54,958 nt of DNA from the IMG/VR virus record IMGVR_UViG_2671180568_000004; one strand, written 5' to 3'. A model generated the notes under the pieces. It was not told the origin of the DNA and ran no database searches. It worked only from the letters and a program-made list of their open reading frames with translations. The stretch comes from a virus (taxonomy: Duplodnaviria > Heunggongvirae > Uroviricota > Caudoviricetes). A program made the position numbers and the translations under genes. Shown here in pieces: positions 5,879 through 50,427 of this stretch (position 1 is its first letter; every line of letters starts with the position of its first letter).

Positions 5879-8800
5879 TCAGCTAATCGTGATGCCTGCA
5901 GTGGCTTTCTTCATCACAACAACCAGCAAATCGCTGATACTTGCTGTGGGATACCAGCCATTTACCAGCCATGCTGACACCGAAAACTCCAGCGTCATGT
6001 GACCGTGACCGGCAGGCATATCAATAACGCCACTGTAAATCAGCGTATTATCCAGCGCGGTACGGTTATAAATTTCAGCACCGTTTTTCCGCACTATCAG
6101 ACGGCATGAGGAGTAAATATCAGTATGCTCTCTCTCATGCTTAGCGCCACTGAATGCCACAGCCGGAATAACAATTTGCCGGTCAAACGGCTGATCGTCA
6201 TAAACCCTGACGGTAATGGTCCCTGATGGCCACCGCTCCGGTGCCCGGGAGTCACGGGGGAAAGCTTTGCCCACTGTTTTAACGAGATCGCCTTCAATCT
6301 GGTTCGCGGACAGTTTTCCCAGAACCCGGCAGTTCTCGTTAATCGTGACGTTGTTGAGCGTCCCGGAGTTCGCATTCACGTTACCGCTGATATCGGCATT
6401 TTTCGCCGTCAGCCGCCCGTCCGGTGTCAGGGAAAATGCCGGAGGATTACCGCCGCTGGTAATGGTGGGGGCCGTCAGGCGCTTCAGGAACACGTCGTTC
6501 ATGAATATCTGGTTGCCCTGCGCCACAAACATCGGCGTTTCATTCCCGTTTGCCGGGTCAATAAACGCGATACGGTTAGCGGCAACCAGGAACTGGCTCA
6601 GTTTGCCTTCCTCCGTATCCTCCATGCTGAGGCCAAGCCCCGCGACATAATGTTTGCCGTCTTTGGTCTGCTCAATTTTGACGCCCCACATGGCATTCCA
6701 TTTATCGTTGGCGTCCTTCCACTCTTTCGAAAACTCCTCCAGTTTGCTGGCGTTATCTTCCGTCAGCTCAAAGTTTTCCAGCAGTTCCTTGCCGAGATGC
6801 GTTTTATTGATCAACCCTTTATAAAAATTCAGATAACCTTCCGCATCATCGCTCGCCCGACCAACGGCCTCCACAAATGCCGATTTACCAACGGTGTTCA
6901 CGCTGCGGATATAAAAGTAATAATCATAACCCGGCTTAATATTGCTACTGGCGGCTATCCAGTACAGCGCCGTACCAAGATAACGCGCGCTGGTTTCAAC
7001 CTGCCTGATATCCGCAATCCGCTTTTCCGAGAACCAGAACTCAAACTGTACCGTCGGGTCATAAACGGCAAGATGCGGCGTGGCGGTTATCTGAAAATAG
7101 CCCGGCGTCAGCTCAATCCGCGACGGTGCTGCCGGTGCGGCAATCCGGAAGGTGGTGGTGGCAGGTTCACCCTGCTGGCCATAGCTGTTTATCGCCCGCA
7201 CCGTCAGGGTGTATTCCCCGAGCGGCAGGCCGCTGAAACGGTGCTCCGTGTCTGCGGTGATGGCGGTGGTCACCAGTCTGGCATCCGTTCCCTTACCACT
7301 GGTCAGGCGCAGACTGAAGCGCACGCCCTTCACCACCCGCGGCGTGTCCCATTTAGCCTGCGCCAGATACTGGCCGTCAGCTGCGCTCACCTCCACCGTC
7401 AGGTGCTGTACTGCCGGTGGGATGACGCTGTTCAGGGAGCCTGACTGCGGCTCAAAGCGGGCACCGTTATCCACGATGGCTTCTTTTTCCGGTACGTGCT
7501 GCACCGCCGTGATGGCAAAGGTGCCGTCCGTGTTTTCCCGGATGGAGACACAGCGGAACAGGCGACGGCGCAGTGACGGCAGGGAGAGTCCCCACACCCC
7601 GTATGTCTCCACACCATCAGGCAGGGTACTGACCTGTATCCGGTCCGGCGCGGGGTGTTCGGTGATGTCCACACTCACTGGCTTACCGCTGCCGTTAATC
7701 AGGTTCACCGTGGCGGCACCGGTCTCCGGAAGTGTCACTTCACGGTCCAGCGTCAGGGTGCGGGTGGCAGCATCAATGGACAGGACACGTCCGCCGGTCA
7801 GGGTCCCGGCATAGTCGTTATCACAGATTTCAATGATGTCACCGGGTGTGTGCCGCAGCCCCTGAGACCCGAGCGTGAAATCCACCGTCTGCGTTTCCAG
7901 CAGTTCGGTCTTTATCACCCACAGTCCGGCACGGTGGGCCTGACCGCGGCTGGTACAGCCGAACGCGTCCATCTTCAGCAGGTTGCGTCCGTAGCGCAGT
8001 ATGGCTTCCGGGTCTTCCACCAGTTCCGTGGAGGTCTGCCAGCCGTTCTGCGGGTCGGTGTAATTCACCTCCACCGCCGTGTGCCGGTCCTTCAGGGCAC
8101 TGAAGCTGTAGCGGAATCCCACGCCGTTATCATCCACCACCACATCGCTGTTGGTGTACGGCCACACCACATCCGACGGGCGGTCCTGAACGAACGTCAG
8201 CGTCTGACCGTTCCATACCGGCATACAGCGCATCGCAGAGCAGAAATCACTGAGAACGTCCCACGCCTTACGCTGTTGTGCCAGGTACGCATTAAAGGTC
8301 ATCCGCGGCTCGGTCCCCCCGAAACCATCCGGGACCGTCTGATCGCAGTACTGCCCGATGGCATACAGCGCCCACTTGTCCACATCCGCCGCCTCCAGAC
8401 GTTTTCCCATGCCGTAGCGCGGGTGAGTCAGCATGTCCCACAGGCACCAGGCCGGGTTGTTGCTGTATGCCGGTTTCAGACTGCCGTCCCAGATACCACT
8501 GTACGTGCGTTTTTCCGGGTCATAGTTTGACGGCACCTGGATGATACGACCGCGGATATGGTAGTTCACCGTCATCTGCTGGCCGCCGAACTGCTCCGCA
8601 TCCACCTGCAGCCCCACAATGGCCGTGTTCGGGTAGCACTGTTTCACATCGATGATTTCGGTGTATGACGACCACAGCGTCTTATTCTGCAGCTGGTCCG
8701 TGGTGCTGTCCGCCGTCTCCCTGACCATCCGGATGTTAAAGGGCCGGGGAGGCAGATTATCCAGAATCACCGAGGCCAGGAACTGTGAGGTGGTCTTGCC

Positions 8801-9268
8801 GTTAATGGTGACGTCCTTTTCCGTCACCCAGCGGCCATTACGCTGTAACTGAATCAGAATCCGGACAGAGGAAGGATTACGGTCGCCCTTTGACGTGGTC
8901 TGCACCAGTGACTGCACCCCGAAGGTAACCCGCAGGCGGTCAATGTTCGCGGACGTAATGGTGCGCGTCACCGGTTTTGCCTTCGTCACTTCCACGCCCA
9001 GTCCGGTTTCAGCTCCGGAGGACTCAAAGCCTTCCGGTGGTGTCTGCTCCTGCTCCCCGGCGCGCCAGACCGCCGTCACACCGTGTATCACGGGATTGCC
9101 GTCCGTGTCCGTCAGTGGGGTTTTGTTCACCAGAATACTCTGCAGTCCCTTCACCGGACCTTCTATCGGTCCCTCACCAATCGCATCAATCACACTCATC
9201 ATCTGCGTGGATTTGAGATTATCCTTCGCCTCACGAGGCGTGTGTGCCTTACCGCCACCTTTTCCCAT
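5879..9268 (-). CDS. J: host specificity / tail tip protein J
   Basis: 1129 aa (lambda J is about 1130 aa); position after I and before lom; fibronectin-like central region. Confidence 0.9.
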
Positions 9269-9372
9269 ACAGCCTTCCCCTGAATAAATTAACCGCCACT
9301 TGCCATTCCGTACAGAAGTCGGATATCCTTCGCCCGAAAAGCATGAAACACATTTCTGCCATGCTAAAGAGA

Positions 9373-9408
9373 AACCCCGGTATCAGCAGATACCGGGGTT
9401 TTCTTTCA
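9373..9408. terminator. bidirectional hairpin terminator in the I-J intergenic region
   Basis: AACCCCGGTATC-AGCA-GATACCGGGGTT flanked by T-rich runs on both strands. Confidence 0.5.
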
Positions 9409-9507
9409 TGCCCACCGATAATCCTGTTGGTTAAAACCGGTAATGGCATAAAAATTCTGAATATCTTCACATTTTCACACACTGACTGTGGCGCTTATAA
9501 TTTCGCT

Positions 9508-9606
9508 GCGTTAGTGTTTTTTTGCCCGAGTAACAAAAACAACTCCTTAACATTGATCTTCATTTGTCTGTCCCCGCAGCTCCGCGATCACTGCGGGATT
9601 TTTTTA
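9508..9606 (+). ncRNA. candidate small transcript (sigma70-like promoter plus intrinsic terminator, no ORF)
   Basis: -35 TTCACA (9474..9479), 16-nt spacer, perfect -10 TATAAT (9496..9501); terminator CCCGCAG...CTGCGGG plus T7 at 9573..9606; CA-rich body; no ATG with RBS. Confidence 0.3.
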
Positions 9607-9610
9607 TGTT

Positions 9611-10291
9611 TTATCCCTGTCGCCCGATAACCACGACCGTTCCGCCCCCGCCTTCATCACGGGTGCTGATGTCCTGGGATATACGGCGGGAGCCAACCAG
9701 CATTTCCCCGTAAGGCACCGGCATCGGGTTCCCCTGGGCAATCATGTTATCCAGCGAGGAAAAGTACGTGTTCTGTCTGCCGTTATCCGTTGCGCGGTAA
9801 TCCGGTGTTTTTGCCTTCGGGGCCAGCATCTGGGCCACACCGCCCAGAATCATGCTGGCTCCAAGTGAAAACAGCATCGTGGTGGCAGAAAAACCACCGG
9901 CTGCCAGGGCTGAACCCCATAACGCCATTGATGCCCCGGCAGTGAAGAAAGAGCCCACGATGGCTGCCGCCCCCAGCACAATCTGCAGTCCACCCTTTCC
10001 GGCCCCGGCCAGTCGCGGCACAATATGGATGACCGTTCCCTCACCCAGCTGTTCGTGAAGACGGGCGTACACCGCCTCCGGTGCCGTGTCATAACCGGCA
10101 ATACGTATCTGGTACCAGCCTTCGTTCATCTGACGGCGAAAGCCCGGCACCTGTAACGACAGCGCCCGGATGGCTTCCGCTGCCGTGTTCACATACAGGC
10201 TGAGGCGGCGGCCAAATCGTTGTAAATCCCCGTGAAGGCAGATGCGTGCCAGTGGCGGTGACGCCAGACAGAATGCGTTCGTCGTTGCCAT
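9611..10291 (-). CDS. I: tail assembly protein I
   Basis: 226 aa; MATTNAFCLASPPLARICLHGDLQRFGRR...NTYFSSLDNM.AQGN resembles lambda I. Confidence 0.85.
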   Translation of the reverse strand: MATTNAFCLASPPLARICLHGDLQRFGRRLSLYVNTAAEAIRALSLQVPGFRRQMNEGWYQIRIAGYDTAPEAVYARLHEQLGEGTVIHIVPRLAGAGKGGLQIVLGAAAIVGSFFTAGASMALWGSALAAGGFSATTMLFSLGASMILGGVAQMLAPKAKTPDYRATDNGRQNTYFSSLDNMIAQGNPMPVPYGEMLVGSRRISQDISTRDEGGGGTVVVIGRQG

Positions 10292-10932
10292 TTTTCGGAA
10301 TACCTCTCCCGTTTACTCAGTTGTTCAGGCAGATGGTGAAGCAGCTCACCGTTGCCGCAGTAAATGGCGGCATGGTTCGGTACCGAAGCACCAAAGCAGC
10401 ACAGCAGAATATCGCCCGCCTGTGCAGAGGACAGGGGCACCCGGTAAAAGCCGGTGACCGCCATATTGTCCAGGTACAGGTTCTGGCCGTTGCGCCACCA
10501 GTCATCCTCGCGATGAAAATCCGGCATATCAATTCCCGCCAGATGGTATGCATCCCGGAACAGCGTGTAACAGTCCGTCACCCCGTGCTCAAAGCGCCGT
10601 CCTGTCAGATGTGGCACACAGCGGAATTTATGAATTTCCCCCCGGCAGACCAGCCACCAGGGTAGTGCGCTTTTTATCTGCAGCCGCCGGTCAGCCTCGC
10701 TCAGCCAGGGCAGCTCACCGGGATGACTGTGGACCAGTGCCACAATCTCCCCCTGCATCTCTGCCCGCAGCCAGTCTTCCGGTGCGATACGAAAATACGC
10801 CTCCGGCTCTGCGGAAATATTCACACAAGGGATATACCGCTCCCCCTCCGGCGTGCTTATCACGAAGCCGCACGACTCCGCAGGCGCACACCGCCGGGCA
10901 TGCGCCAGAATCGCTGATTCAGTCTGTGTCAT
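10189..10932 (-). CDS. K: tail tip assembly protein K (JAB/MPN plus NlpC/P60 domains)
   Basis: starts MTQTESAILAHARRCAPAESCGFV (ATG at 10930..10932); HSHPG...SEAD JAMM-like motif; C-terminal Cys/His NlpC-like region; overlaps I by 103 nt in another frame. Confidence 0.8.
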   Translation of the reverse strand: MTQTESAILAHARRCAPAESCGFVISTPEGERYIPCVNISAEPEAYFRIAPEDWLRAEMQGEIVALVHSHPGELPWLSEADRRLQIKSALPWWLVCRGEIHKFRCVPHLTGRRFEHGVTDCYTLFRDAYHLAGIDMPDFHREDDWWRNGQNLYLDNMAVTGFYRVPLSSAQAGDILLCCFGASVPNHAAIYCGNGELLHHLPEQLSKRERYSEKWQRRTHSVWRHRHWHASAFTGIYNDLAAASACM

Positions 10933-15264: not shown

Positions 15265-15944
15265 TCATGACTGTGCTGCAAAGCTCAGCGCGTCTTCCAG
15301 CGCCGCAAACGGATCCACCTCCGGCTTATCCTCATCCTCGCCCCAGCAGAGCATGGCGTCCTTCAGTGCAACATTCATCCCCTGTGCCCCAAAAACCGCT
15401 TTCACGATCTGTGCATTACGGATATCCCCGCGCTCATCACCCAGCGGGGATACCCTGTCGAACTCCATCCACATCATCGCCTCGCTCACACTCAGGCTGT
15501 GCCGCAGTTCGGATAAGGTGCGCCCCAGACGGAGCGCAAGTCGCATCAGAAAGCGAATTTCCGGGCGGGCTACTTTTTTCTGGCCGACTCTGCATCAGCG
15601 ATCAGTTCCAGTGCCTGACGCAGCAACCGGGCATGTACCGGACCATAGACGGCCAGCACCTGCTCACGGTCGTCCGGAGCGAACACCCGCTGCAGATCCG
15701 TATCACACAGGACATCGCAGAACAGCGTCACATCCGCTTCCAGGTTACGGCGGGTTTTCGCCACCACCGACAGGGTATCGTCATCCTCTCCATCACCATT
15801 GAGCACTTCCTGCCACAGATACCAGGCCTCTGCCGAAGGCTCCCGCAGCACCACGCTGACATTACCCCATTCCGGCACCTTCACCGTTTTATGACGAAAC
15901 CCTGACAGTCTGGCCAGCGCCAGCGTTTTCAGATCCTTTTTCAT
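15265..15944 (-). CDS. GT: tail assembly chaperone G-T fusion made by programmed -1 frameshift
   Basis: G frame ends ...GCC AGA AAA AAG TAG; -1 slip at A_AAA_AAG continues in frame into ORF 15265..15546 (MRLALRLGRT...). Confidence 0.7.
15570..15944 (-). CDS. G: tail assembly chaperone G
   Basis: ATG (MKKDLKTL) with AAGGGGA RBS; lies between V and H. Confidence 0.75.
   Translation of the reverse strand: MKKDLKTLALARLSGFRHKTVKVPEWGNVSVVLREPSAEAWYLWQEVLNGDGEDDDTLSVVAKTRRNLEADVTLFCDVLCDTDLQRVFAPDDREQVLAVYGPVHARLLRQALELIADAESARKK
15573..15579 (-). promoter_or_regulatory. slippery heptamer A_AAA_AAG (programmed -1 frameshift site)
   Basis: read directly at the 3' end of G, immediately before its TAG. 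Confidence 0.7.
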
Positions 15945-28905: not shown

Positions 28906-29121
28906 TTACTCTCCCCGTGCCGCCTTACGACGGTCCTCTCTGATTTTGAAATACAGGTTAGTCAGATATGTCAGCAGCCCAAACAGCAGACTCCCCAGCA
29001 CGCCTATTGCCGCCCACTGAGACGGGGAAACCCTGTCCAGCAACTGCAGGAACCAGTAGCCCGTTCCCACCGCTGACGTGGTGTATGACACACCTGTTGT
29101 GATTTTTTCCATCTGGTACAT
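28906..29121 (-). CDS. S: holin (dual-start motif MYQM)
   Basis: [73 protein letters not shown] segments plus charged C-terminus. Confidence 0.85.
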
Positions 29122-29271
29122 ACCCCGTCTCCCGTTATCCGGAAGCTGACAACAATAAAAAAAGCCACCAGTTAAGTACTGATGGCTCTGATAACTCATG
29201 CAGGCATCTCAGACGACCCACTGACACTACCGGTGAGTTTAACGATACCTTCCATTTGACTGGCTCACTTT

Positions 29272-32853: not shown

Positions 32854-32888
32854 GCAGTTTACTCACATCTGACAAAATCAATATAAAC

Positions 32889-33069
32889 AGCCCCTCCGGA
32901 GAGGGGCTGGAGAGTGGCGCTATGTGCCATTGCATGGTGCCGGGTGCCTCCCGGTGAATTCAGTACCAGCACCTGAATCCGCGATTATCCCATATACCTA
33001 CTCGCTGATTACCCCTCCGCACAGGGGGATTCACCATGCGAAATTTTTTAACAAACTTCCCGCCGGCCA
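32889..33069. repeat. copy A of a ~180-bp element (hairpin AGCCCCTCCGGAGAGGGGCT plus conserved blocks)
   Basis: shares hairpin, GCATGGTGCC.GG.GCCTCCCGGT.AATTCAG, GGGGGATTCACCATGCGA and TTTTAACAAA...GCCAGACAAT.ATC with copy B. Confidence 0.7.
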
Positions 33070-33341: not shown

Positions 33342-33539
33342 TGCACAGAAAAGCCCCTCCGGAGAGGGGCTGAAGTATAGCCTAATTTCTGTCTGTCGCA
33401 TGGTGCCAGGGGCCTCCCGGTAAATTCAGCCTGTCTACTGAATTTGCATGTTCTCTGGATCATACACTTTGCCAGATGCCCCGCCGCTGAGGGGGATTCA
33501 CCATGCGATGTAATTTTTAACAAATTCTCCGGCAGCCAG
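33342..33539. repeat. copy B of the same element, same orientation
   Basis: see copy A. Confidence 0.7.
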
Positions 33540-33799: not shown

Positions 33800-33876
33800 T
33801 GGACCGCCATCGGGGACTTGAACCCCGCGCAGCCAGCTTCGAAGGCTGGCGCTCTATCCCGATGAGCTAATGGCGG
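33800..33876 (-). tRNA. tRNA-Arg (anticodon UCG)
   Basis: cloverleaf by eye: acceptor CCGCCAT/ATGGCGG, D-arm TAGCTCATCGGGATAGAGC, anticodon loop CTTCGAA, T-arm GGGGTTCAAGTCCCC, CCA. Confidence 0.75.
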
Positions 33877-33883
33877 TATGTGA

Positions 33884-33959
33884 TGGTGGCCCTTGCTGGA
33901 TTTGAACCAGCGACCTGGCGATTATGAGTCGCTCGCTCTCACCACTGAGCTAAAGGGCC
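33884..33959 (-). tRNA. tRNA-Ile2/Met-type (anticodon CAU), ileX/ileZ-like
   Basis: GGCCCTTTAGCTCAGTGGTGAGAGCGAGCGACTCATAATCGCCAGGTCGCTGGTTCAAATCCAGCAAGGGCCACCA; near-identical in architecture to E. coli ileX as recalled. Confidence 0.85.
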
Positions 33960-38326: not shown

Positions 38327-38482
38327 TTACTCCTCAGGTTCGTAAGCTGTGAAGACAGCGACCTCCGTCTGGCCGGTTCGGATTCGTACCTCGCAGAGGT
38401 CTTTCCTCGTTACCAGTGCCGTCACTATGACGGTTAAACAGATGACGATCAGGGCGATTAGCATCGCCTTTTGCTGCTTCAT
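38327..38482 (-). CDS. hok: Hok/Gef-family type I toxin (51 aa)
   Basis: MKQQKAMLIALIVICLTVIVTALVTRKDLCEVRIRTGQTEVAVFTAYEPEE; in-frame upstream extension to 38539 may be a mok-like frame. Confidence 0.85.
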   Translation of the reverse strand: MKQQKAMLIALIVICLTVIVTALVTRKDLCEVRIRTGQTEVAVFTAYEPEE

Positions 38483-38773
38483 AGCCTGCTTCTCCTTGCC
38501 TTTCGGCACGTAAGAGGCTAACCTACGTGTGTAGAGCATAGATATGGCCTCAGATTAATGTTAAGCGTCTTGCCGGACGCGTAATGTTAACTGGGGCTTT
38601 TCTCTATCTGCCTTTTGGTGTTCATGCCTGAGACAGATAGCCTCAAGCACCCGCTGCAATTCTACTTAACTCTCCTTTTCCCGCAAACCGTTTTTATCCC
38701 CAGCGGCAAATCGAATACACCACCAGCGCCACCGCCATCGCAATTCCTACCGTTGTTAATGCTTCAGGCCAGC

Positions 38774-50369: not shown

Positions 50370-50427
50370 TTTCTGGTGACGTTTGGCGGTATCAGTTTTA
50401 CTCCGTGACTGCTCTGCCGCCCTTTTT
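50370..50427 (+). ncRNA. dicF: DicF small RNA (ftsZ-targeting), with intrinsic terminator
   Basis: TTTCTGGTGACGTTTGGCGGTATCAGTTTTACTCCGTGACTGCTCUGCCGCCC plus T-run matches E. coli DicF as recalled; about 170 nt upstream of dicB as in Qin. Confidence 0.85.

Follow-up and report, generated by a model that had tools for sequence, protein, structure and literature searches.

A promoter-terminator unit between the phage tail genes I and J corresponds by sequence to the Hfq-dependent prophage sRNA PasB

The spacer between the tail genes I and J in a 54,958-nt stretch of tailed-phage DNA (IMG/VR record IMGVR_UViG_2671180568_000004; the whole stretch is referred to as the window) contains a promoter-terminator unit that is directed against the tail operon. 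Judged by its sequence, the unit is the known Hfq-dependent prophage sRNA PasB (pathogenicity-associated sRNA B), which was described in EPEC E2348/69 by Pearl Mizrahi et al. 2021 (PMC8550237) and the distribution of which was studied by Zhu, Shabalina and Storz 2026 (bioRxiv 10.64898/2026.05.13.724894). It is in that sense a real RNA gene that was already known. A preliminary description of the region had proposed a free-standing sRNA gene running against the tail operon, and the correspondence with a validated sRNA bears this out; a genuine gene for an sRNA can be recognised from the raw sequence. The unit is very probably a copy of pasB that forms a self-contained RNA gene and functions as an Hfq-dependent sRNA that base-pairs in trans.

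Location, identity and anatomy of the unit

The names of the two flanking genes follow the annotation of phage ASU11, which is 100% identical to the window over the I-J region. The tail operon around the unit lies on the minus strand and the spacer measures 342 bp (9269-9610), compared to 60 bp in lambda (15445-15504). The spacer had been singled out as unusual on the basis of the sequence; all elements that had been named within it were found in place (Table 1).

The pasB gene of E2348/69 is located in prophage PP6 (NC_011601.1, minus strand, 1466343..1466261, 83 nt; Table S6 of PMC8550237), and positions 9523-9605 of the window are identical to it at 82 of the 83 bases. The exception is A9549, which replaces a C at PasB position 27; according to Zhu et al., this position separates PasB from PasB-2 (bioRxiv 10.64898/2026.05.13.724894). 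Over the longer interval from the -35 hexamer through the U-run the window and E2348/69 likewise differ at one base. The reverse complement of the published northern probe for PasB (AATCCCGCAGTGATCGCGGAGCT; Table S6, PMC8550237) has one exact match in the window (9578-9600, plus strand) and none in shuffled sequences. The surroundings agree as well. PasB was described as lying inside an operon that encodes structural proteins of the phage (Zhu et al., bioRxiv 10.64898/2026.05.13.724894), and in E2348/69 pasB is found between a tail assembly protein gene (ending at 1466255) and gpJ (starting at 1466496), antisense to both. The window unit lies within the phage structural operon too, between I and J and on the opposite strand. 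The two copies thus share sequence, probe site, place, orientation, promoter and terminator, but apart from the base at position 27 they differ in the remainder of the spacer, which in E2348/69 measures 240 bp and is unrelated to that of the window in the J-proximal half and the hairpin therein. The Rfam scan that had been suggested gave no family for the unit in release 15 (8500-10500 at E<=1; whole window at the gathering threshold).

Table 1. Features of the I-J region (positions in the window)
Feature	Position	Strand	Basis
J	5879..9268	-	ORF list; name by ASU11 annotation (host specificity protein J)
J-proximal spacer half, 'long-spacer' lineage only	9269..9445	.	coverage in phage records and E. 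coli genomes
Terminator-like bidirectional hairpin, between PasB promoter and J start	9366..9406	.	stem 9371-9383 / 9388-9400
Near-invariant block upstream of promoter	9448..9476	+	alignments of alleles A-D
Sigma-70 promoter TTCACA-16-TATAAT	9474..9501	+	11/12 consensus match
Predicted primary transcript from sigma-70 promoter, 98 nt	9508..9605	+	-10 ends at 9501
PasB as annotated in E2348/69, 83 nt	9523..9605	+	identity to NC_011601.1 1466343..1466261 (minus)
(ARN)4 tract AAC-AAA-AAC-AAC ('CA-rich stretch' of the preliminary description)	9532..9543	+	sequence
Single-stranded element AACAACUCC, conserved (every allele has AAyUCC)	9538..9546	+	alignments, duplex prediction
Candidate seed UUUGUCUGUC, just 5' of terminator stem	9563..9572	+	complementarity to main RIL-seq partner
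Intrinsic terminator CCCGCAG, 11-nt loop, CTGCGGG, U7	9573..9605	+	folding, consensus scan
I	9611..10291	-	ORF list; name by ASU11 annotation (tail tip assembly protein I)

The near-consensus promoter that had been reported to point against the tail operon was recovered by a consensus scan, with the -35 hexamer TTCACA at 9474-9479, a 16-nt gap and the -10 hexamer TATAAT at 9496-9501; within 2 kb the scan returned three promoter-like sites against 1.2 expected. The -10 is retained in all alleles of the unit (see the next section) as TATAAT, AATAAT, TATCAT or GATAAT. The gap differs among the alleles, as does the -35 of alleles C and D. The block upstream of the promoter reads AATAAAAwTTCTGAAwnTCTTCACATTTyC and is followed directly by variable sequence. 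It includes a CRP-like core, TCTGA-ATATCT-TCACA (9456-9471), of which the half-sites are conserved in all alleles and the N6 is variable. Two such cores were found in the 55-kb window, where 1.84 are expected, so that the match alone is not significant; moreover, its centre (9463.5) lies at -44.5 if transcription starts at 9508 and at -59.5 to -60.5 if it starts at 9523/9524, neither of which is a canonical distance. The PasB promoter may possibly be under the control of CRP, which would fit the higher expression of PasB in LB than in glucose medium.

The predicted start at 9508 lies 15 nt upstream of the 5' end based on RNA-seq (9523), and in the RIL-seq rows considered the read starts of E2348/69 reach only 1466344, equivalent to 9522 in the window. 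Either PasB would be processed, or the TATAAT promoter would not be the one used. The sequence between the two 5' ends, GCGTTA followed by a U-run (9508-9523; consensus GCrTTA), is conserved in all alleles. In several alleles GCGUUA, at the 5' side, is able to pair with bases further downstream, which mildly favours the longer primary transcript; alternatively, TAnnnT at 9512-9517, which is conserved, could serve as a second -10.

The body was said to be devoid of a start codon and indeed contains no ATG. An A-rich tract of the ARN type is found at the position of the former 'CA-rich stretch' in every allele, with a sequence that differs between them, and ARN motifs have been reported in AgvB and AsxR (PMC4104026). 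Since the tract is kept although its sequence changes, it is better read as a candidate distal-face binding site for Hfq than as a seed. The unit thereby combines an (ARN)n tract with a U-tailed Rho-independent terminator, as expected of an Hfq class II-like sRNA. The candidate seed segment between the two (9563-9572) is allele-specific.

The strong intrinsic terminator of the preliminary description is present as well, with a stem of 7 bp (9573-9579 / 9591-9597), the 11-nt loop, a U7 at 9599-9605 and a folding energy of -12.6 kcal/mol; a consensus scan places a terminator-like site near 9581-9597. Five bases separate the end of the U-run from the stop codon of I (9611-9613, minus strand). The 3' arm of the terminator and the U-run are invariant in all relatives. 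RNAalifold recovered no structure common to the alleles except the terminator, the stem of which is invariant and hence shows no covariation.

The J-proximal half of the spacer is covered by 13 of the 147 phage records in which the unit recurs, versus 1445 of 5426 E. coli genomes. In E2348/69 and the Stx phages it is replaced by about 75 unrelated bases, which results in the 240-bp spacer. The second, bidirectional hairpin that had been reported upstream of the promoter lies in this half. Its arms (AAACCCCGGTATC-AGCA-GATACCGGGGTTT) are preceded by an A-tract and followed by a T-tract, and it folds on both strands (-26.0 kcal/mol on the plus and -27.1 kcal/mol on the minus strand), being much stronger than the PasB terminator. 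An Rfam near-match, SSRC34_2 (27 bits versus a threshold of 48), covers just this hairpin (9371-9400). At the equivalent place the short-spacer relatives have, on the tail-operon strand, a hairpin of unrelated sequence, ACAGGCAyCC..GGrTGCCTGT with TTGTTTTTG after it. A hairpin between the PasB promoter and J is thus found in both types of spacer, in unrelated sequences.

Alleles of the unit and the EcOnc RNAs of E. coli O157

The segment from the upstream block to the terminator (~9445-9610) recurs in 147 phage records, for most of them at 74-82% identity, and the majority of these records are Stx1a-, Stx2a- and Stx2c-converting phages. With a window-type query the unit was matched in 1612 of 5426 complete E. 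coli genomes. Such a recurrence indicates that the unit is more than a product of chance. The preliminary description had considered that the spacer could be a degenerate remnant; the promoter is conserved in distant relatives, which argues against this. A scan for the conserved block in one genome per species yielded E. albertii and two contaminant contigs only, and says little beyond 'Escherichia only'. Among the matches listed for the 1612 genomes, RefSeq leaves pasB unannotated, and it has no family in Rfam release 15.

The promoter gap and the RNA body could, on the basis of the alignments, be divided into at least four alleles, in which the promoter and the terminator are conserved and the body varies. 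Allele A is the one of the window, E2348/69 and ASU11; allele B is found in VR50, PhiR5_1 and some of the Stx2c phages, allele C in Stx1_499, 1717 and YYZ-2008, and allele D in CP-1639 and Sakai. The parts that are invariant or nearly so are the upstream block, the -10 (xATxAT), GCrTTA with the U-run, AAyTCC, AATCTTC, and CTGCGGG with the T-run. The window-type query returned 870 records that are at least 99% identical and 647 at 90-95% identity; two fetched records of the latter group carry allele B within the same long spacer. In complete E. coli genomes, the query with allele C matched 574 genomes (median of 3 copies) and that with allele D 551 genomes (median of 2 copies).

Between S1-CAM-02-A (allele A) and VR50 (allele B), the ~200 nt on the left side differ at only 2 positions and the 86 nt on the right side are the same. 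The remaining differences are packed in ~67 nt that begin at about +12 of the transcript and extend to the terminator's 5' arm. The pattern is that of a sharply local replacement of the pairing region.

Allele D connects the family to RNAs described in EHEC. EcOnc22 (Sp15), EcOnc23 (Sp14) and EcOnc24 (Sp11) were listed as mutual homologues (Tree et al. 2014, PMC4104026, Table S2), and EcOnc22 was detected as an RNA of ~85 nt on a northern blot and found to be destabilised without Hfq (PMC4104026). Placed on NC_002695.2, each of the three coordinates lies within the I-J spacer of its prophage (Sp15, Sp14 or Sp11), and the strand is the one that does not carry the tail genes. The published coordinates are offset from those in NC_002695.2 by approximately +128 to +146 bp, a value calibrated at AgvB1 only (peak at 1941783-1941835, Rfam match at 1941920-1941981). 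With this offset between versions, on which their placement depends, the Hfq-CRAC peaks of EcOnc22-24 land on the body of the PasB-like sRNA. The three Sakai copies are identical to each other, carry allele D and can be aligned with the window: the upstream block, the -10, AAyUCC, AATCTTC and the terminator all correspond. Like PasB, EcOnc22-24 are Hfq-bound, ~85 nt in size, located in I-J spacers and antisense to the tail genes; unlike the window copy, they have the body of allele D, at ~74% identity over the unit. On these coordinates, the copies of O157 Sakai correspond to EcOnc22/23/24. As far as we have seen, this link was made by neither of the Pas papers (PMC8550237, Zhu et al.): Table S6 of PMC8550237 has no entry for an EHEC homologue of PasB, and 'EcOnc' is nowhere mentioned in the preprint by Zhu et al. 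(bioRxiv 10.64898/2026.05.13.724894).

Partners and mode of action of PasB

Expression, size, Hfq dependence and in vivo partners are taken from the literature and pertain to the E2348/69 copy only, which is 82/83 identical to the window. RIL-seq in EPEC E2348/69 brought PasB to light, and a northern blot validated it; the RNA is ~80 nt in size, strongly Hfq-dependent and a partner of many mRNAs (PMC8550237). In an hfq deletion its level drops (log2FC of -6.8 and -2.4), and it is commoner in static LB (the 'non-activating' condition) than in DMEM ('activating') (PMC8550237). The partners discussed below rest on the activating-condition rows of PasB and the opening blocks of both RIL-seq sheets. 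In total PasB has 37 RIL-seq interactions, and it is nearly always RNA2 of the chimera, the position of an sRNA (PMC8550237). Under activating conditions the partners in these rows are bfpB (62 chimeras), ler (54), perB (36) and bfpI (33), followed by ftsZ (22), galE (21), the pasA.E2348C_0689 intergenic RNA (19) and rplX (11) (PMC8550237). Under non-activating conditions, where PasB totals 1820 chimeras, the opening block lists 774 chimeras in three libraries with the same pasA.E2348C_0689 intergenic RNA, another 24 in the reverse order and 54 with its PP5 counterpart (PMC8550237).

The partner RNA that is dominant in these rows maps to NC_011601 743482-743611 (plus strand), between the genes of the SASA esterase and the class II holin of prophage PP2. 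A plus-strand terminator follows it closely, and part of it lies opposite pasA; the annotation of phage 434 shows the same esterase-holin arrangement. By duplex prediction, a 24-nt site in this leader, 5'-UGACAGACAGUGACGGAUGUUGUC-3' (743509-743532), faces both PasB elements. The predicted pairing comprises 20 bp (8+4+3+5), in PP2 as well as in PP5, and falls inside the read windows of the RIL-seq rows considered, the PP5 copy of the site (at 1290919) being inside the second of these. The longest helix is formed by GACAGACA of the partner, which is perfectly complementary over 8 bp to UGUCUGUC of PasB, just 5' of the terminator; the other predicted pairs are GUGA with UCAC, GGA with UCC and GUUGU with ACAAC. 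On the partner side, GGAUGUUGU is the predicted counterpart of the PasB element AACUCC. The energy of the duplex, -22.8 kcal/mol, is reached by 4.4% of shuffles and is thus weakly significant. The pairing of PasB with the holin leader is suggestive mainly because the predicted site coincides with the chimeras. RNAduplex gives very large interior loops on long targets, so that comparisons between alleles by this route are uninformative.

Zhu et al. also put the proposed seed of PasB just upstream of the terminator (bioRxiv 10.64898/2026.05.13.724894). The assignment of the seed rests on one dominant partner; we infer the seed, as we do the direction of regulation. The own esterase-holin spacer of the window (~29116-29270, minus strand) is short and does not contain the partner site for PasB. 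The pairing, if functional, would act between prophages.

Taken together, pasB would be transcribed in the lysogen against a silent tail operon, from its own promoter to its own terminator, which would give a transcript of ~83-98 nt with a hairpin, a U7 tail and an (ARN)4 tract. The U7-tailed hairpin and the tract together would account for the strong dependence on Hfq. Its most likely pairing surface is the single-stranded stretch that separates the ARN tract from the terminator (AACAACUCC ... UUUGUCUGUC).

The four-allele family at the I-J spacer, the link to EcOnc22/23/24 and the holin-leader partner are the new leads here. They could be joined in a wider scheme, in which PasB (EPEC) and EcOnc22-24 (EHEC) are alleles of one widespread family of I-J-spacer sRNAs, with a fixed promoter, Hfq tract and terminator around an exchangeable pairing cassette of ~67 nt, and in which allele A is specialised to the holin leader of co-resident lambdoid prophages, possibly under cAMP-CRP. 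As a whole we consider this scheme tentative and rather unlikely. If true, one prophage would be connected through an RNA to the lysis cassette of other prophages. The swapped pairing region, the EcOnc22-24 link and the holin-gene partner each bear on the mutual influence of co-resident prophages in pathogenic E. coli.

Other roles can be imagined for the unit. The preliminary description supposed that the CA-rich stretch pairs with a GU-rich host sRNA, which would make PasB a sponge (anti-sRNA) of GcvB or another such RNA, in analogy with AgvB. Prophage anti-sRNAs exist (PMC4104026) and GUAACAAAAACAAC can be drawn paired with GcvB's R1 region at -18.9 kcal/mol, the best duplex for the single-stranded part of PasB, but ~17% of dinucleotide shuffles equal or beat this duplex; the target prediction that had been recommended thus came out no better than shuffled sequence. 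PasB does not contain CACAACA, the consensus of R1 targets. The CA-rich stretch itself differs in sequence between the alleles, and folding of the 98-nt form predicts that it pairs with the 5' U-run. The activating-condition rows of PasB do not name GcvB as a partner, and a gcvB::pasB pair was not found in the opening block of either RIL-seq sheet, which holds the sRNA-sRNA pairs and lists sroC::gcvB. With duplex, consensus and the RIL-seq rows considered all against it, pairing to a GcvB-type RNA is not supported, and a sponge function is very unlikely. On the question of whether the unit is a described prophage anti-sRNA, the answer is divided: it is a described prophage sRNA, whereas a sponge role of the AgvB/AsxR/GcvB kind is unsupported.

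The main role could also be one in cis. PasB is by construction fully complementary to the mRNA of the late tail operon, and the RNA or its transcription could act on that mRNA at the I-J junction, lowering the expression of J or causing cleavage. In line with this, the position of the gene is shared by all alleles, with the terminator directly next to the stop codon of I, and a hairpin that resembles a terminator is always present on the tail-operon strand between the PasB promoter and J. RIL-seq is not known to report chimeras between overlapping loci, and the published data would, given this limit, be compatible with a cis role. However, PasB is abundant and Hfq-bound in uninduced lysogens, in which the late operon is silent, and has many partners in trans in the rows considered. 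Furthermore, its body varies sharply among alleles with identical flanks, from which a purely cis-acting antisense RNA would gain nothing. An antisense action in cis is on these grounds an improbable main function. Nor does the spacer look coding, although gp9c of ASU11, a 66-aa 'hypothetical protein', is annotated over 9249-9449 (minus strand) and ORFs of 22 and 28 aa run antisense to PasB, the shorter of which opens with an ATG at 9563 (minus strand; MKIN...) preceded by GGGGA. The ASU11 frame (66-77 aa) crosses the hairpin of -27 kcal/mol and reaches into the beginning of J. Allele B (CGAAGATT) has lost the start codon of the small ORF, and the alleles do not share their reading frames. Four ORFs of the spacer, including the ASU11 frame and the 28-aa ORF antisense to PasB and leaving aside the one of 22 codons, had no significant match in PHROG or Pfam, with one sub-threshold chance match, and RefSeq (PGAP) has no CDS here among the matches listed, nor at the E. 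coli loci examined. That the spacer encodes a small protein is extremely unlikely.

Known elements of phage genomes resemble the unit to a varying degree. Short antisense RNAs that end in a terminator and are directed against a phage operon are known from lambda (OOP) and P22 (Sar), where they act on the overlapping mRNA. PasB is alike in form, but has many trans partners on Hfq, whereas OOP and Sar act in cis. AgvB and AsxR are, like the unit, short, Hfq-dependent and prophage-encoded, with their own promoter and terminator, ARN-type motifs, and a conserved 3' part next to a variable pairing part. Identity of the unit with either of them was rejected, as they are located at the PR' moron site downstream of Q and not in the I-J spacer (PMC4104026). 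They also lack similarity to the unit in sequence or covariance model: RF02702 and RF02703 of Rfam have no match over 8500-10500 at E<=1 and none over the window at the gathering threshold, while the AgvB model, used as a positive control, finds AgvB in Sakai at 96.5 bits. In addition, AgvB and AsxR mimic the target site of an sRNA and bind that sRNA, a behaviour not recognised for the window unit. Esr41, also considered as an identity, was rejected because it is encoded in SpLE1. In its organisation the unit is an insert that separates two conserved phage genes and brings a promoter and a terminator of its own. It shares these properties, and expression from a repressed prophage, with the phage morons (Juhala et al. 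2000, as cited in PMC4104026), the 60 bp of lambda at this place illustrating the extra DNA; in contrast to a moron, its payload is an RNA instead of a protein and is oriented against the surrounding operon.

The main partner of PasB and other seed matches

The main partner of PasB is an abundant Hfq-bound RNA derived from the esterase-holin spacer (positions 2683-2871 of the E2348/69 PP2 locus, L013; NC_011601 743482-743670, plus strand), for which no name was found in the accessible part of the PasB literature. It runs to a terminator that is annotated on the plus strand, upstream of the pinholin gene, and it overlaps the pasA promoter, which lies on the opposite strand. The corresponding region in phage 434 is found at 1501-1730 of its comparison locus (L019).

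The nine bases at 9565-9573 of the candidate PasB seed are identical to UGUCUGUCC of E2348/69 GcvB (L020, 46-251), located in a 3' single-stranded region (context: ACCCUGUCUGUCCAUAG). The rough chance of such a shared 9-mer is ~0.03. If the match is real, its shared sequence would make PasB a mimic of a GcvB seed rather than a GcvB sponge.

The complement of the PasB seed, GACAGACA, is also present in the RNA of the second of two tandem STnc100 copies (plus-strand TGTCTGTC at 33390), an 8-mer of this kind being expected by chance once per strand. The STnc100 family was related to PasD by Zhu, Shabalina and Storz (2026, bioRxiv 10.64898/2026.05.13.724894). Rfam matches in the window include a sok antitoxin RNA, DicF and two tRNA genes, and this single prophage window therefore contains at least five RNA genes beyond PasB.

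Additional RNA genes and the annotated gp9c reading frame
Feature	Window position	Strand	Score	Source	Other position
STnc100, tandem copy 1	32879-33067	-	132 bits
STnc100, tandem copy 2	33343-33536	-	138 bits
tRNA genes (n=2)	33803-33959	-		Rfam
sok antitoxin RNA	38477-38652	-	117 bits	Rfam
DicF	50371-50422	+	77 bits	Rfam
gp9c, hypothetical protein, 66 aa	9249-9449	-		annotation in phage ASU11 (ON416862.2)	L001 (phage ASU11) 1481-1681

Hairpins and gp9c in the I-J spacer

The long (window 9366-9406) and short (L012, 1600-1670) I-J spacers each have a hairpin that separates the PasB promoter from J. The two hairpins hold equivalent positions but are unrelated in sequence, and on the tail-operon strand a U-rich tract comes after each of them. 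They look like analogous terminators within the late operon. The annotated gp9c covers the J-proximal half of the spacer, overlaps the J start and crosses a hairpin of -27 kcal/mol. A PHROG and Pfam search with gp9c gave no match, and its annotation is probably an over-call.

PasB-like units in other assemblies

Sequences similar to this region were found in two short contigs from unrelated assemblies, of Streptomyces flavalbus (L028, NZ_JBHTEB010000006.1, 3408 bp; 97% identity to window 7326-10739) and Parendozoicomonas haliclonae (L026, 460 bp; 81% identity to window 9445-9888), both almost certainly E. coli prophage contamination. E. coli 1504D004 (L018, NZ_CP149565.1, 608-962) has an intact PasB-like unit and an intact gene I, and an IS66-family element, adjoining a truncated pseudogene, takes the place of J; this decayed prophage still keeps its PasB-like sRNA gene.
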